Assembly (NCBI GenBank): GCA_045613745.1
Contig: JAZLBP010000010.1
Span: forward strand, 87,136 to 151,135
From: Rikenellaceae bacterium
Lineage (GTDB): Bacteria > Bacteroidota > Bacteroidia > Bacteroidales > Rikenellaceae
Direction: 5' to 3'
Length of the DNA stretch: 64,000 nucleotides
Of the stretch, positions 8,500 through 13,880 are shown piece after piece. The first letter of the stretch is position 1, and each line of letters begins with the position of its first letter. Made by a program: the position numbers and the translations under genes. The notes beneath the pieces were generated by a model that was given only the letters and a program-made list of their open reading frames with translations, did not search any database and was not told the origin of the DNA.

Positions 8500-8574
8500 C
8501 GGGGTGTAGCGCAGCCCGGTTAGCGCACCTGCTTTGGGAGCAGGGGGTCCCGCGTTCGAATCGCGGTACCCCGA
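8500..8574 (+). tRNA. tRNA-Pro (anticodon TGG)
   Basis: CGGGGTG acceptor pairing with TACCCCG, anticodon loop CTTTGGGAG, T-loop GTTCGAATC. Followed by a terminator hairpin. Confidence 0.9.
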
Positions 8575-8728
8575 CACAAAAGAAAGGCCTATCCAAGTTT
8601 TGGGTAGGCTTTTTTAGTATGTTGATTTTCAGCCCAATAATAATAATACAAAAAGCCGCTGAAATATTTGGAATTACTACTCCTTATTACTATTTTGGGG
8701 GAAAATAATCAACCTAACACACTTTACT

Positions 8729-9295
8729 ATGGAACGCAAAATCACAACTCCGTTTATAATCGCAGGCTTGGCAGTGGCATTTGCGGCCGTGTCGGCGTGG
8801 GTATGGCTCAGTGGTGGCAAAAATGCACGCGCAGTACGCACAAAATTCAAAATCGGCGGTATGCTCCTCACCCTTACCACCGCTGTGGCCACACAATCGT
8901 GCTTTGATATTAACAATGCTACTTGCTACGCCCCTGCATCAACACCATATTGCGACCTTTTTGACGAGGATATGAAATTCGCCAATGGCGACACACTACG
9001 GATTTATGCCTCATCCTACGACTACAAATACTACTCCTTCAATATCGTTGACAAAGAGAACAACGTACTACAAGAGGAGAAATTATCACGTCCCTATCCA
9101 TTGAGAGAGAACCCCGTGATTGTTGCCGTGGGTAACTATGTGGGTGAGGCCAAAGTAAATGTATATGGAGGTGGCGACGAGAACGCAGTCGCACAAGAAA
9201 ATCATATCAAGAGTTTCGACATCACAATCGAGGCTGTGGCAACACTCCCCGAGGACACAACCGAAACCGAAGAGAACACCGACAATGTCGAGTAA
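8729..9295 (+). CDS. Membrane-anchored / putative lipoprotein partner of the radical SAM enzyme (unknown function)
   Basis: 188 aa. It has a TM helix, then a second hydrophobic stretch ending ...TAVATQSC, then the Cys cluster CFDINNATCYAPASTPYC and an acidic C-terminal tail. The stop codon overlaps the next gene. Confidence 0.7.
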   Translation: MERKITTPFIIAGLAVAFAAVSAWVWLSGGKNARAVRTKFKIGGMLLTLTTAVATQSCFDINNATCYAPASTPYCDLFDEDMKFANGDTLRIYASSYDYKYYSFNIVDKENNVLQEEKLSRPYPLRENPVIVAVGNYVGEAKVNVYGGGDENAVAQENHIKSFDITIEAVATLPEDTTETEENTDNVE

Positions 9296-10310
9296 ACTAT
9301 CGCTCGGGCTGGTCGTATTTGAGACTACCGACGCGTGCAACCAGCGTTGCAAATTCTGTTACAACCACTGGAAGGCCGACGGCGATGTGTCGGCCGACGC
9401 ACCCGATTTTCGCCTTGCGCGTCGCACACTGCGCACCCTCTTGTCGCAGGCCGAGGTGACGCAAATCTCGATGTCGGGTGGCGAGCCCTTGCTTGTGCCC
9501 CGACTGCACGACCTGATATGGAGTGCGCGGTGGGCCGGTTCGGCGGTAAACGTGCTTACCAACGGCACTCGAATGAAGCCCGACACCCTTGCCATTTTGC
9601 ACGACTTGGGGGTACAACACATTCAGATACCCATCTTGGCCGACAATGCCGCCCTGCACGACTCCATTACGGGACTTGAAGGGTCGTGGCAGAGGTGTAC
9701 CGACACGGCGCGCCAAGTGGCCGAGATGCGCAAGGATTGGCTGACGCCCGTATTCATCCTATCAAGGCTCAACCGCGACAACATTGCGCCCACGCTCCGA
9801 TTGTACAGCAGTTTGGGGTGCAGGATTGCGATGTTCAACCGCTTTAACATCGGCGGCTTGGGTATTCACCACGCTGGGGAGCTGACATTGAGCAATGCGG
9901 AGTTGCAGGATGCTTTCGCTGTGGCAAGTCGCACCGCAACCGAACTAAATATGCTGCTCCACAACGGTGTATGCTCGCCAATGTGCGTACTCGACCCGAG
10001 CAAATATCCGCACATCATCTTCTCGCACTGCAACACCGACATCAAAAATCGCCCGCTAACCATCAACTATCGCGGTGACGTGCGTTTCTGCAACCACTCG
10101 CCACGCGTATTGGGCAACATCCACCAAAAGCCCTTGGCAGAGATTTTGGACGCCACACACATCGGCAACTTCTATGGCGGCACTCCCGACTATTGCAAAA
10201 GTTGCAAGCTGTGGGAGGTATGTCGAGGGGGTTGTCGCGCCGCATCGGAGCAACTCTACGGCACATTCAACCGCGTGGACCCGATTGTCGAGCAAACCGA
10301 CGCCGAATAA
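9285..10310 (+). CDS. Radical SAM / SPASM-domain protein (peptide/protein-modifying maturase type)
   Basis: CNQRCKFC (CxxxCxxC) near the N-terminus and SPASM-like C..CKSCKLWEVCRGGC at the C-terminus. Start set to the ATG at 9285 (MSSKLSLGLVVFETTDAC), which overlaps the upstream ORF by 11 nt. Confidence 0.85.
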   Translation: MSSKLSLGLVVFETTDACNQRCKFCYNHWKADGDVSADAPDFRLARRTLRTLLSQAEVTQISMSGGEPLLVPRLHDLIWSARWAGSAVNVLTNGTRMKPDTLAILHDLGVQHIQIPILADNAALHDSITGLEGSWQRCTDTARQVAEMRKDWLTPVFILSRLNRDNIAPTLRLYSSLGCRIAMFNRFNIGGLGIHHAGELTLSNAELQDAFAVASRTATELNMLLHNGVCSPMCVLDPSKYPHIIFSHCNTDIKNRPLTINYRGDVRFCNHSPRVLGNIHQKPLAEILDATHIGNFYGGTPDYCKSCKLWEVCRGGCRAASEQLYGTFNRVDPIVEQTDAE

Positions 10311-10348: not shown

Positions 10349-10356
10349 TAATTTTG
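10349..10356 (+). promoter_or_regulatory. -7 box TAATTTTG upstream of ppa
   Basis: TAnnTTTG match 22 nt upstream of the ATG at 10379. Confidence 0.45.
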
Positions 10357-10378: not shown

Positions 10379-11062
10379 ATGGGAAACAAAATCAACGACC
10401 CTATCGCGCGACTGATGGGACTGCGATACAAATCGCACCCCTGGCACGGAATCGAAGTGGGCGACGACGCACCTAATGTCATCACCGCTTTCATCGAAAT
10501 GGTGCCTACCGACACCGTAAAATACGAACTCGACAAGGTGAGCGGTTACATCAAAATCGACCGACCGCAAAAGTACTCGAACGTTATCCCCGCACTATAT
10601 GGTTTCGTTCCGCAAAGTTTCTGCGGCGAGAGCGTGGCAAGCTACTGTATGCAGCAGAGCGGACGCGAGGACATCGTTGGTGACAGCGACCCGCTGGATA
10701 TCTGCGTGCTGACCGAAAGGGACGTTTCGCACGGCGACATCATCGTCAACGCCCGCCCCATCGGAGGTTTCCGTATGTTGGACGGCAACGAGGCCGACGA
10801 CAAAATCATCGCAGTGTTGAGCCACGACGTAACTTACAGCGGCTACACCGACATCTCGGAACTGCCCCGAGGCGTGGTAAACCGTCTGAAACACTACTTC
10901 CTGACCTACAAGGATATGCCCGACGCAGGCGAAAACCAAAAGAAGAAGGTTGAAATCATCGACACCTACGGCCGCGACGAGGCTTGTGAAATCATCAACC
11001 GCTCGCTCGAAGACTACAAGTGTCACTTCGATAGTTTGGACGACATCCTCCGCCGCGTGTAG
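10379..11062 (+). CDS. ppa: Inorganic pyrophosphatase (family I)
   Basis: HPWHGIEVG, VKYELDK and DPLDICVL motifs. Confidence 0.88.
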   Translation: MGNKINDPIARLMGLRYKSHPWHGIEVGDDAPNVITAFIEMVPTDTVKYELDKVSGYIKIDRPQKYSNVIPALYGFVPQSFCGESVASYCMQQSGREDIVGDSDPLDICVLTERDVSHGDIIVNARPIGGFRMLDGNEADDKIIAVLSHDVTYSGYTDISELPRGVVNRLKHYFLTYKDMPDAGENQKKKVEIIDTYGRDEACEIINRSLEDYKCHFDSLDDILRRV

Positions 11063-12679: not shown

Positions 12680-13264
12680 ATGCCATATAGAAGAACTATT
12701 ATTATGACAACCGCGACAAAGAAACGAGTTACCCTCTACGACAAAACATTCGAAGTGATGATTCCCTTCGAAGAGTTGGATCAACACATCGAGAAGATTG
12801 CCGAACGCATAAACCGCGATTACAGCAACACCCCCCAGCCCCCCGTTGTGCTGGCTGTGCTGAACGGCTCATTTATGTTTATGGGCGATTTGATGAAGAA
12901 AATCGAGTTCAACTGCGAGGTACAGTTCATCAAGGTAGCGTCGTACGACGGAGGCCAAAGCACAGGCAAAGTACGCGAACTGATTGGTCTGAACGGCTCA
13001 TTGGAGGGTCGCGATGTGATTGTGGTCGAGGATATTGTCGAAACGGGCAACAGCATTGCACACATATTCGCCCTACTCCAAGCGCAAGGCGTGGCAAGCG
13101 TGGCTGTGGCAACAATGTTCTTCAAGCCCGAGCTCTACAACAAGGAGTTCGAGATTAAATACCCCGCAATGGTTATTGGCAACGACTTTATCGTGGGCTA
13201 TGGTTTGGATTACGACCAACTCGGCCGCAACCTTAAAGATATTTATGTTATTGTAAATGAGTAA
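12680..13264 (+). CDS. hpt: Hypoxanthine phosphoribosyltransferase
   Basis: VIVVEDIVETGNS PRPP-binding motif. An alternative start exists at the ATG at 12704. Confidence 0.88.
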   Translation: MPYRRTIIMTTATKKRVTLYDKTFEVMIPFEELDQHIEKIAERINRDYSNTPQPPVVLAVLNGSFMFMGDLMKKIEFNCEVQFIKVASYDGGQSTGKVRELIGLNGSLEGRDVIVVEDIVETGNSIAHIFALLQAQGVASVAVATMFFKPELYNKEFEIKYPAMVIGNDFIVGYGLDYDQLGRNLKDIYVIVNE

Positions 13265-13880
13265 ACCTGACTACAAAGACGGGCGACTGCTGCCGCTTGT
13301 CGAGGAATTCTATACGCTGCAAGGCGAGGGCTACCACACAGGTGTGGCCGCATATTTCATCCGCTTGGGCGGTTGCGATGTGGGTTGTCGCTGGTGTGAT
13401 GCCAAATACACTTGGAATGCTGCAGCGCATCCGCTGACCGAGGCCGATCAGATTATTGAGCGCGCTGCCTCCTACCCCGCACGTTCGATTGTGATTACGG
13501 GCGGAGAGCCACTGCTCTATCCGCTGGACTACCTGACCGGTGGTCTACACGAGCGCGGTTTGGAGATTTTCTTGGAGACATCGGGCTCGCACCCTTGGAG
13601 TGGCAACTTCGATTGGGTGTGTCTGTCGCCCAAGCGCCAAATGCCGCCGCTGGACGAAGCCTTTGAGCGTGCCGACGAGCTGAAAGTTATCATCGAGAAG
13701 CCCGAAGATTTGGAGTGGGCCGAGAGTTGCGCTGCGCGTGTGGGCGAAAAGTGCCGTCTGTACCTGCAACCCGAGTGGAGCCGCTTTGCCGAGATTATCC
13801 AACCCATCGTGGAGTATGCAATGAACAATCCCAAATGGAAGGTTTCGGTGCAAACCCACAAGTATATGAACATTCCCTAA
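13257..13880 (+). CDS. queE: 7-carboxy-7-deazaguanine synthase (radical SAM)
   Basis: EEFYTLQGEGYHTGVAAYFIRLGGCDVGCRWCD motif. Overlaps hpt by 8 nt. Confidence 0.88.
   Translation: MSKPDYKDGRLLPLVEEFYTLQGEGYHTGVAAYFIRLGGCDVGCRWCDAKYTWNAAAHPLTEADQIIERAASYPARSIVITGGEPLLYPLDYLTGGLHERGLEIFLETSGSHPWSGNFDWVCLSPKRQMPPLDEAFERADELKVIIEKPEDLEWAESCAARVGEKCRLYLQPEWSRFAEIIQPIVEYAMNNPKWKVSVQTHKYMNIP

Follow-up and report, generated by a model that had tools for sequence, protein, structure and literature searches.

Two overlapping genes at positions 8,729 to 10,310 of a 64,000-nucleotide (64-kb) stretch of a Rikenellaceae bacterium genome (contig JAZLBP010000010.1; the whole stretch is referred to as the window) encode a small protein with a lipoprotein-type signal, here called the partner, and a radical S-adenosylmethionine (SAM) enzyme that carries a SPASM domain. 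The pair is a strictly conserved two-gene unit of gut and rumen Bacteroidales, and the enzyme reaches no curated family cut-off. We read the pair as an enzyme-substrate module in which the enzyme would modify the partner at a Cys-Tyr site, in the cytoplasm and before export, a reading to which we assign a probability of roughly 0.55. The two genes are:

8729..9295, forward strand: partner gene, 188 aa, from the list of open reading frames (ORFs); founding member in the window of an unnamed Bacteroidales family
9285..10310, forward strand: radical SAM/SPASM enzyme gene, 341 aa; PF04055 and PF13186 above their cut-offs

Both ORFs and an 11-nt overlap between them had been described in an earlier note on this DNA, made from the sequence alone, and the ORF list and the sequence agree with that description exactly; the shared 11 nt read ATGTCGAGTAA. 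The enzyme is contained in a longer ORF (9159-10310), in which the internal ATG at 9285 gives the 341-aa product with the N-terminus MSSKLSLGLVVFE / MSSKLSLGLVVFETTDACNQRCKFC. This start agrees with the N-termini of all homologues.

The conservation of the pair was assessed by scanning one genome per GTDB species with a sequence pattern and tblastn, which returned 135 enzyme relatives, 80 of whose loci were fetched; the database holds at least 742 relatives at E ≤ 1e-10. A partner profile built from the window protein and three Alistipes homologues was then run against all ORFs of the 80 loci. Seventy-eight loci are informative, having at least 560 nt of upstream DNA, and the two loci without a match end at the enzyme start. 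A partner homologue ends within a few nucleotides of the radical SAM start in 77 of the 78 informative species loci, and in the remaining one (L086) it lies immediately downstream of the enzyme gene, so that adjacency is found in 78/78. Gene overlaps of 4, 11 and 17 nt are frequent among the paired loci. The reverse look-up, starting from partner proteins in assemblies, finds a radical SAM/SPASM gene directly downstream in six cases out of six. A neighbourhood census of this kind had been proposed in the earlier note as a check on whether the partner is always adjacent, and its outcome bears the proposal out. Carriers include Rikenellaceae (Alistipes, Tidjanibacter and metagenome-assembled genomes), Paludibacter and other Paludibacteraceae, Tannerellaceae, Cryptobacteroides, Coprenecus and many rumen Bacteroidales.

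The flanking genes vary by lineage: HAD, tRNA and ppa genes in the window, lgt and SPOR in L003, ispG and recO in Alistipes, and genes of no known kind in L088. Besides the TIGR04133/TIGR04134 genes of Alistipes-type loci, no further neighbour is conserved across lineages in the examined loci. Since the flanks differ in this way, the conserved unit is the pair itself, and the two genes almost certainly form a functional pair. We note that in L088 (a rumen Bacteroidales; L088:1-2989) two large genes, of at least 411 aa and of 607 aa, precede the pair; neither product has a Pfam match, and the 607-aa product has a lipoprotein-type signal.

The same census bears on the proposal that the adjacency is meaningless, or that the true substrate is an unannotated short precursor nearby of the kind that gives peptides made by the ribosome and altered after translation (RiPPs). 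This we regard as very improbable. The one point in its favor is a general prior, namely that short peptides are frequent substrates of SPASM enzymes. Against it, the 78/78 adjacency recurs across lineages with otherwise unrelated flanks, and the two spacers of the window, 153 nt between the tRNA and the partner gene and 68 nt between the enzyme gene and ppa, hold no conserved small ORF. The earlier note had likewise found no convincing short precursor ORF, and the flanking spacers indeed leave no room for one.

Two partner paralogues accompany a single enzyme in five species (L063, L077, L081, L083 and L069). In the first four, both copies are full-length and each has the transmembrane helix, the basic loop and the Cys-Tyr described below; the extra copy of L069 is only partial. 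The four full-length sets occupy L063:1337-2403, L077:2779-4004, L081:3402-5647 and L083:3393-5586, where the copies either stand in tandem or flank the enzyme on the opposite strand.

The partner family comprises 443 clusters at 50% identity (E ≤ 1e-3) and 302 clusters at 90% identity. It matches no Pfam or NCBIfam model, all of its members are unnamed, and a Pfam search of the family at E ≤ 1 yields scattered single matches only. Its anatomy was derived from alignments of 17, 76 and 86 members, from a rule-based survey of 76 paired members and from an AlphaFold2 (AF2) model of the window protein (mean predicted local distance difference test, pLDDT, 78.9), in which residues 6-27 and 33-59 are helical, 60-73 form coil, 74-168 contain the strands and the tail is disordered. 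The segments of the window gene are as follows:

8744..8809, forward strand: first transmembrane segment (TM1), a hydrophobic helix, residues 6-27; helical in AF2, with invariant F18 and W24
8810..8860, forward strand: basic loop SGGKNARAVRTKFKIGG, residues 28-44, net charge +5, with invariant K39, G43 and G44
8861..8902, forward strand: short hydrophobic stretch ending at the lipobox-type Cys58 (TQS-C), a signal-peptidase-II-like pattern
8918..8947, forward strand: linker with the Cys-Tyr sequon (Cys-Tyr codons 8924-8929), coil in AF2
8948..9232, forward strand: immunoglobulin (Ig)-like/FN3-like β-sandwich body, residues 74-168, seven strands in AF2 with pLDDT 85-94
9233..9292, forward strand: acidic disordered C-terminal tail, 0.26 bits/column, pLDDT ~53

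Across the 76 surveyed members an N-terminal tail of 3-9 residues (charge +1 to +2) is followed by TM1, whose mean length is ~20 aa and whose mean Kyte-Doolittle hydropathy is 2.35; together the two score 2.66 bits/column. The basic loop is the best-conserved segment of the protein, at 3.42 bits/column and a mean net charge of +5.1, with the 17-aa consensus S-G-G-[RK]-[SN]-A-[KR]-A-[VI]-[RK]-x-K-[FY]-[RK]-[LI]-G-G. A hydrophobic region of ~12 aa that ends in a Cys then follows in 76/76 members, and the residue before the Cys is Ser, Ala or Gly in 75; this second hydrophobic stretch and its lipobox score 2.45 bits/column. The complete lipoprotein pattern of basic segment, hydrophobic region, Cys and subsequent acidic stretch is thus present in all 76, in agreement with the lipobox proposed earlier for the window protein, and the additional preceding transmembrane helix is atypical of it. 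The linker is Pro-rich and net-acidic (2.27 bits/column). The β-sandwich body evolves fast (1.48 bits/column), keeping only small NGD, LQ and GDYxGxA motifs, and Foldseek relates it only to generic MG, FN3, PKD, CARDB and Ig-like domains at E ~1e-3; neither these nor the scattered Pfam matches assign the body to a specific known domain. The acidic tail is lineage-specific, being absent in Alistipes and other members, so that its description in the earlier note holds for the window protein and not for the family.

By the positive-inside rule, which compares the charge of the N-terminal tail (about +2) with that of the loop (about +5), the protein should have its N-terminus out, the loop in and the C-terminus out. 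An arrangement with both termini in would keep the Cys-Tyr site within reach of the enzyme at all times; it is unlikely, as it would place the +5 loop outside and the Ig-like domain and lipobox inside. The basic loop is then the sole segment predicted to be cytoplasmic and may serve the enzyme as a docking or leader element. The N-terminal region as a whole (2.5-3.4 bits/column) is far more conserved than the body (1.5), a pattern of leader-like logic that would support the view of the partner as a substrate.

Behind the lipobox lies the most distinctive element of the family, a sequon of the form [VIT][TS]-C-Y-[DE]-P-A-P-P, represented in the window by A-T-C66-Y67-A-P-A-S-T-P. C66 and Y67 are invariant in both the 76- and the 86-sequence alignments. 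Of the 86 proteins, 58 have the dipeptide once and 28 have it twice, compared with 0.185 expected per protein from composition, and it sits 3-20 residues (mean 8.7) after the lipobox Cys in a region that is otherwise variable and that AF2 models as coil (pLDDT 61-67). The flanks favor Val, Ile or Thr at −2, Thr or Ser at −1, Pro at +3, Ala at +4 and Pro at +5; among 111 Cys-Tyr sites, 103 have Asp or Glu at +2, where the window protein has Ala (CYAP).

The earlier note had placed the emphasis elsewhere, on a tight cluster of three Cys spaced C-x8-C-x9-C. The actual residues are C58, C66 and C75, and each interval is one residue shorter than given there (C-x7-C-x8-C). While C58 and C66 are conserved, C75 gives way to Tyr in P0014-P0016 and is missing from Alistipes and further lineages, so the cluster is rejected as the functional core; what is invariant is the lipobox Cys, the Cys-Tyr and the transmembrane helix with its loop. 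Exactly two Cys are present in 17 of the 86 members, presumably the lipobox Cys and that of the Cys-Tyr. A fixed CxnC metal or disulfide motif is unlikely because the distance from the lipobox to the Cys-Tyr ranges over 3-20 residues and C75 is unconserved.

A substrate role for the partner is favored because an invariant dipeptide lies in a disordered linker with sequon-like flanks, because the motif is duplicated in some members, and because five species have two paralogues per enzyme. That the 188-aa protein is the obvious substrate candidate was already the view of the earlier note, and we consider it probable that the partner is the substrate of the enzyme. The Cys-Tyr dipeptide as the site of modification we place at about even odds.

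The enzyme scores 58 bits with PF04055 (cut-off 29.5) and 30.6 bits with the PF13186 SPASM model (cut-off 21.5), which supports the earlier assignment of CNQRCKFC and a SPASM motif. Its metal-binding elements are:

9336..9359, forward strand: CxxxCxxC motif (CNQRCKFC; C18, C22 and C25) for the SAM-binding [4Fe-4S] cluster
9972..10235, forward strand: SPASM auxiliary-cluster region with eight Cys, residues 230-317, defined in two enzyme alignments (A2 and A6)

With CxxxCxxC beginning as early as residue 18, there is no space in front of it for an RRE or PqqD-like domain. The Pfam scan finds only PF04055, PF13186 and PF13353 in the enzyme, and no PqqD-like gene is adjacent to the pair in any examined locus; having neither a fused nor an adjacent PqqD-like element, the enzyme falls outside the RRE-dependent RiPP maturases. 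The canonical SPASM motif, CX9-15GX4C ... CX2CX5CX3C ... C, supplies seven Cys for two auxiliary Fe-S clusters. The window enzyme has C230, C234, C249-x14-G-x4-C269 and C304-x2-C307-x5-C313-x3-C317. No seventh Cys follows CX2CX5CX3C as it does in the canonical motif, and C230 and C234 are extra Cys upstream. All eight are invariant in alignment A2, and in A6 seven are invariant and C249 is present in at least 90% of sequences. Auxiliary-cluster ligation may therefore differ from that of anSME or CteB.

The AF2 model of the enzyme has a pLDDT of 84 and a predicted TM-score (pTM) of 0.86, with its β/α core (residues 41-180) above pLDDT 90. Foldseek identifies SkfB, SuiB, anSME, CteB and PqqE as the nearest folds, led in E-value by SkfB (3.8e-15) and CteB (5why, 2.2e-12). 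Full-length TM-scores are highest for anSME (0.72-0.75), since neither it nor the window enzyme has an RRE domain. By phmmer, the nearest solved structures are PqqE (6c8v, E 3.8e-10) and SkfB (1.9e-9); the match to anSME (4k37) is marginal at E 8.5e-4, involves the SPASM region only and has no stretch above threshold on its own. The best NCBIfam matches are the GeoRSP model TIGR04303 (96.9 bits vs a cut-off of 400) and PqqE TIGR02109 (82.1 vs 381.35), others being lower; both scores fall below the equivalog cut-offs, and membership in either family is rejected. No anSME model is among the 25 best NCBIfam matches. Identity as an anSME is likewise rejected, by the enzyme sequence and by the partner sequon, which has no Arg; what the two have in common is the overall fold alone. 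These results uphold the earlier expectation that the enzyme does not group with a characterised family. A reading as viperin or another defence protein is set aside too: the PADLOC pVip matches span residues 11-105, the generic radical SAM core, and a SPASM domain is present.

The NCBIfam families TIGR04133 (rSAM_w_lipo, radical SAM/SPASM enzymes) and TIGR04134 (lipo_with_rSAM, small lipoproteins) of Bacteroidales, both uncharacterised, make up one of the systems nearest to the pair. Of the 80 species loci, 34 with the label Alistipes sp. or unclassified Bacteroidetes hold the pair within a co-directional array that runs from 1-6 small lipoprotein genes through the partner and its radical SAM gene to a second radical SAM/SPASM gene, with some lipoprotein genes between the two enzymes. 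Examples are L004:4040-9041, L006:2945-7305 and L090:321-5959, and such arrays are present in 30 further GTDB loci, L022, L027 and L061 among them. The second enzyme of the array belongs to TIGR04133 (574.6 bits vs a cut-off of 425), and the small lipoproteins belong to TIGR04134 (up to 81.9 bits vs 39.8).

The earlier note named a TIGRFAMs "rSAM/lipoprotein system" that the window pair was thought to resemble. As a lead this proved useful, given the arrays just described; as an assignment it fails. That the pair is a plain member of TIGR04133/TIGR04134 would fit the shared general layout, a SPASM enzyme beside a small lipobox β-sandwich protein, and the linkage of both systems in Alistipes operons. 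Yet on TIGR04133, where 425 bits are required and the true TIGR04133 neighbour attains 574.6, the window enzyme's Alistipes orthologue reaches 38.9, and TIGR04133 is not among the 25 best NCBIfam matches of the window enzyme. TIGR04134 matches neither the window partner nor its Alistipes homologue, and hhalign of the partner against the TIGR04134 family aligns 15 signal-peptide and lipobox columns only, with a probability of 27%. A TIGR04134 protein has an ordinary signal peptide, a YG.P motif and a CarboxypepD_reg-like β-domain, with no transmembrane helix and basic loop and no CY[DE]P, and there are 1-5 copies per enzyme; the present pair has the extra helix and loop, CY[DE]P, near 1:1 pairing and usually overlapping genes. 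Plain membership is hence the least credible of the explanations considered here. A tblastn search within the 64-kb window found no TIGR04133 or TIGR04134 homologue. The window pair is a distinct sister-type module, physically linked to TIGR04133/TIGR04134 in one genus.

The two systems nevertheless share more than their taxa. TIGR04134 proteins keep a Tyr motif, [EAM]-Y-G-x-P (or PYYV), a few residues past the lipobox Cys, which parallels the CY[DE]P of the partner family, and where an enzyme has two partner paralogues, this mirrors the operons in which TIGR04134 lipoproteins outnumber TIGR04133 many to one. The shared array suggests a common pathway for two different radical SAM/lipoprotein modules, and in Alistipes the TIGR04133/TIGR04134 system probably does an analogous job on its own lipoproteins.

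Some array members are mini-lipoproteins of 57-62 aa (L006:6049-6222, L090:2770-2958, L091:2775-2960 and L092:2769-2954). Apart from a signal peptide with lipobox and an acidic tail, they hold only 1-3 Y-G-x-P motifs (MYGPVPMYGPIHAEYG or LDAYGVPYSEY; L006:6049-6222 has three), which suggests that the functional core of TIGR04134-type proteins is the Tyr-Gly motif. These Y-G motifs are similar to the XYG motifs found in spliceotide precursors. Within these operons, 13 of the 80 GTDB loci also hold a third lipoprotein family, unnamed and ~200 aa long (for example L004:6081-6680, L006:2945-3577 and L090:804-1427); it has a C-terminal CR[IV]C....GC and no NCBIfam match.

A rival reading gives the partner a different role, that of a membrane adaptor or scaffold. 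Its loop would dock the radical SAM enzyme at the inner membrane for work on another substrate, such as TIGR04134-like lipoproteins entering Sec/Lgt, a lipid or a small molecule, and the Ig-like domain and Cys-Tyr would have a separate role. Such a protein would explain why its one predicted cytoplasmic segment is also its most conserved (3.42 bits/column), and strict adjacency, a single partner in most loci and overlapping frames are typical of complex subunits; the position of the pair among TIGR04134 lipoprotein genes in 34/80 species fits as well. However, an adaptor role leaves unexplained why a disordered extracytoplasmic linker should hold an invariant and sometimes duplicated Cys-Tyr sequon, most lineages, including that of the window over its 64 kb, have the pair without TIGR04134 genes nearby, and in some genomes one enzyme is accompanied by two partner paralogues. 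Moreover, SPASM enzymes that bear two auxiliary clusters nearly always act on a co-encoded polypeptide (PMC10114670). On balance we find the adaptor role unlikely.

With the partner as substrate, what reaction might be expected has to be judged from known enzymes. Radical SAM/SPASM enzymes are cytoplasmic Fe-S enzymes and a main source of new post-translational chemistry. They characteristically act on a co-encoded peptide or protein, from which they abstract hydrogen, and their products include thioethers (sacti- and ranthipeptides, and QhpD acting on QhpC), C-C and C-O links, and formylglycine made from Cys or Ser by anSME (PMC10114670). A Cys-centred thioether is the most common precedent; as the product in the present case it is tentative, and we hold it with low confidence.

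The anSME/AtsB/ChuR enzymes are radical SAM/SPASM proteins of similar size, have no RRE and provide the best full-length TM match. Their sulfatase targets have signal peptides and are acted on in the cytoplasm, before export. Within the complete protein, one Cys of a short sequon is modified (PMC10114670). The differences are considerable: identity with the window enzyme is 13-14%, the sulfatase sequon is C/S-x-P-x-R as opposed to [VIT][TS]CY[DE]PAPP, many unlinked sulfatases take the place of a dedicated, co-encoded and translationally coupled small protein, and the SPASM Cys pattern of the window enzyme is without the C-terminal seventh Cys. QhpD, a radical SAM/SPASM enzyme in the maturation of the γ-subunit of quinohemoprotein amine dehydrogenase, introduces Cys-to-Asp/Glu thioethers into the co-encoded small protein QhpC, which is no classical RiPP, before export (PMC10114670). 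The present sequon resembles its target in usually having Asp or Glu at Cys +2. Here, though, the acidic +2 residue is not invariant, there are one or two candidate sites compared with three or four in QhpC, no dehydrogenase subunits or dedicated exporter genes lie nearby, and no QhpD-type model is among the best NCBIfam matches of the enzyme.

Sacti- and ranthipeptide synthases are Cys-centred radical cross-linkers of a co-encoded precursor with a conserved N-terminal part (PMC10114670). Of the SkfB/CteB/AlbA/PapB group, SkfB and CteB are the nearest by Foldseek E-value, and SkfB is close by phmmer. These enzymes have an N-terminal RRE and act on short secreted peptides; in the present system there is no RRE, the "leader" contains a transmembrane helix and a lipoprotein signal, and the product would be folded and membrane-tethered. 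TIGR04303 GeoRSP and PqqE enzymes give the best full-length hidden Markov model matches, and PqqE is the best solved structure by sequence, but scores are four to five times below the cut-offs and no PqqA/PqqD-like or GeoRSP partner gene lies nearby. A literature search found nothing on GeoRSP.

The likeness to anSME lends some weight to a variant with the same substrate and site and no thioether. In it, Cys66 would be oxidised at Cβ (to formylglycine or a thioaldehyde-derived group), or a C-C or C-O link or backbone rearrangement would be centred on Tyr67, giving a reactive or rigid element beside the lipid anchor. An anSME-like architecture (341 aa, no RRE, TM-score 0.72-0.75) and a short sequon around one Cys, reminiscent of the C-x-P-x-R logic of sulfatases, agree with it, as do a Tyr as invariant as the Cys and the TIGR04134 Tyr motif [EAM]-Y-G-x-P, which occupies the equivalent place with respect to the lipobox and besides which the mini-lipoproteins hold little. 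The similarity to anSME in sequence is marginal, however (E 8.5e-4, SPASM region only; the anSME model is absent from the 25 best NCBIfam matches), and the sequon has its Pro at +3, not +2, and no Arg. Present data separate none of the possible chemistries, and we judge this variant even less likely than an adaptor role.

In the enzyme-substrate module that we favor, both proteins would be produced from one mRNA by coupled translation. The pre-protein would present a long conserved N-terminal region, comprising the transmembrane helix, the cytoplasmic basic loop and the lipobox stretch, and the enzyme would meet it before its C-terminal part is exported. Recognition might proceed through the basic loop in the manner of a leader, through the sequon as with anSME, or through both. 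Hydrogen abstraction by the 5'-deoxyadenosyl radical would then lead to modification of the Cys66-Tyr67 site, where an intramolecular thioether or another cross-link of Cys66 would be favored, with Tyr67 or the usually acidic +2 residue as possible acceptors. The modified product would be exported, probably lipidated at Cys58 and cleaved, so as to leave the Ig-like body outside and tethered. Precedents for such a modification are anSME with its sulfatases and QhpD with QhpC.

Several considerations weigh against this module. The connection between the enzyme and the Cys-Tyr site is one that we infer, and the topology and lipidation of the partner are pattern-based predictions. The predicted topology would export the Cys-Tyr only ~8 residues behind the hydrophobic stretch, so that its modification needs post-translational or delayed export, and TM1 is hydrophobic enough to be a substrate of the signal recognition particle, which would favor co-translational insertion. 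Conservation of the loop would be explained equally well by a role as a stable anchor. With Ala at +2 in the window protein, the universal chemistry cannot be a Cys-to-Asp/Glu(+2) thioether, and one of the paralogues (L063:1337-1855) is without the lipobox Cys.

A more speculative extension is possible, which we consider rather less likely than the module itself. The hairpin-type lipoprotein signal, made up of the transmembrane helix, loop and lipobox, might double as a RiPP-style leader that holds the pre-protein at the cytoplasmic face and recruits the enzyme for formation of a cross-link or cofactor at the Cys-Tyr. Together with TIGR04133/TIGR04134, the pair would then represent a family of radical-SAM-matured lipoproteins with new protein chemistry. 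Should the N-terminal region be such a leader, it would constitute a new coupling of cytoplasmic modification to lipoprotein export and a previously unrecognised maturation route for Bacteroidales cell-envelope proteins, with a bearing on the surface-protein biology of abundant gut commensals.

A literature search on radical SAM/SPASM-lipoprotein systems returned nothing on the partner or enzyme family. A radical SAM/SPASM enzyme with a dedicated protein substrate is of a known kind; of the family, the hairpin-type extended signal or leader and the Cys-Tyr sequon, that search gave no description. To our knowledge, almost all characterised SPASM cases act on short secreted peptides, and few (anSME, QhpD) act on proteins. 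With respect to the earlier note, its observation and part of its interpretation stand, three points being corrected, namely which motif is the target, how the Cys are spaced and how the pair relates to TIGRFAMs; the target is now narrowed, most probably, to the 188-aa protein and one dipeptide. The system is compact and common in gut and rumen Bacteroidales such as Alistipes, Tidjanibacter, Paludibacter, Tannerellaceae and Cryptobacteroides, and the question of what the radical SAM/lipoprotein systems of this order do becomes directly testable with it.

At the window locus the pair is set between a tRNA-Pro(TGG) gene (8500-8575), 5' of the partner gene, and the inorganic pyrophosphatase gene ppa (10379-11062), 3' of the enzyme gene. 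The latter is identified through synteny, its counterpart in locus L001 carrying PF00719. One further feature marks the upstream side:

8581..8615, forward strand: hairpin and U-run after tRNA-Pro, with a 16-bp stem, folding free energy (dG) −20.3 kcal/mol and z −5.86

This hairpin emerged from folding against shuffled sequences, 0/200 of which fold equally well; a simple scan tool gave no report of it. It is probably the terminator of the tRNA and the upstream limit of the cassette. On the other side, a match to TAnnTTTG, the Bacteroidetes-type −7 motif that is enriched in the window (72 occurrences vs 29.7 expected), lies at 10349, just 5' of ppa. Because the hairpin bounds it upstream and the motif and ppa bound it downstream, the cassette is a bounded two-gene unit, as the earlier note had also described it. 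No exact TAnnTTTG is present within 8616-8728, the 113 nt before the partner gene; a near match by eye, TATTTTGG, lies at ~8692. A sigma-70 promoter scan, also run, is uninformative for Bacteroidetes.

A second radical SAM gene, small (207 aa), is found at 13257-13880 of the window, 3 kb downstream of the pair and after a phosphoribosyltransferase gene. Its product is assigned to Fer4_12/PF04055 by synteny with L001 and is probably a housekeeping, activase-type enzyme unrelated to the pair.

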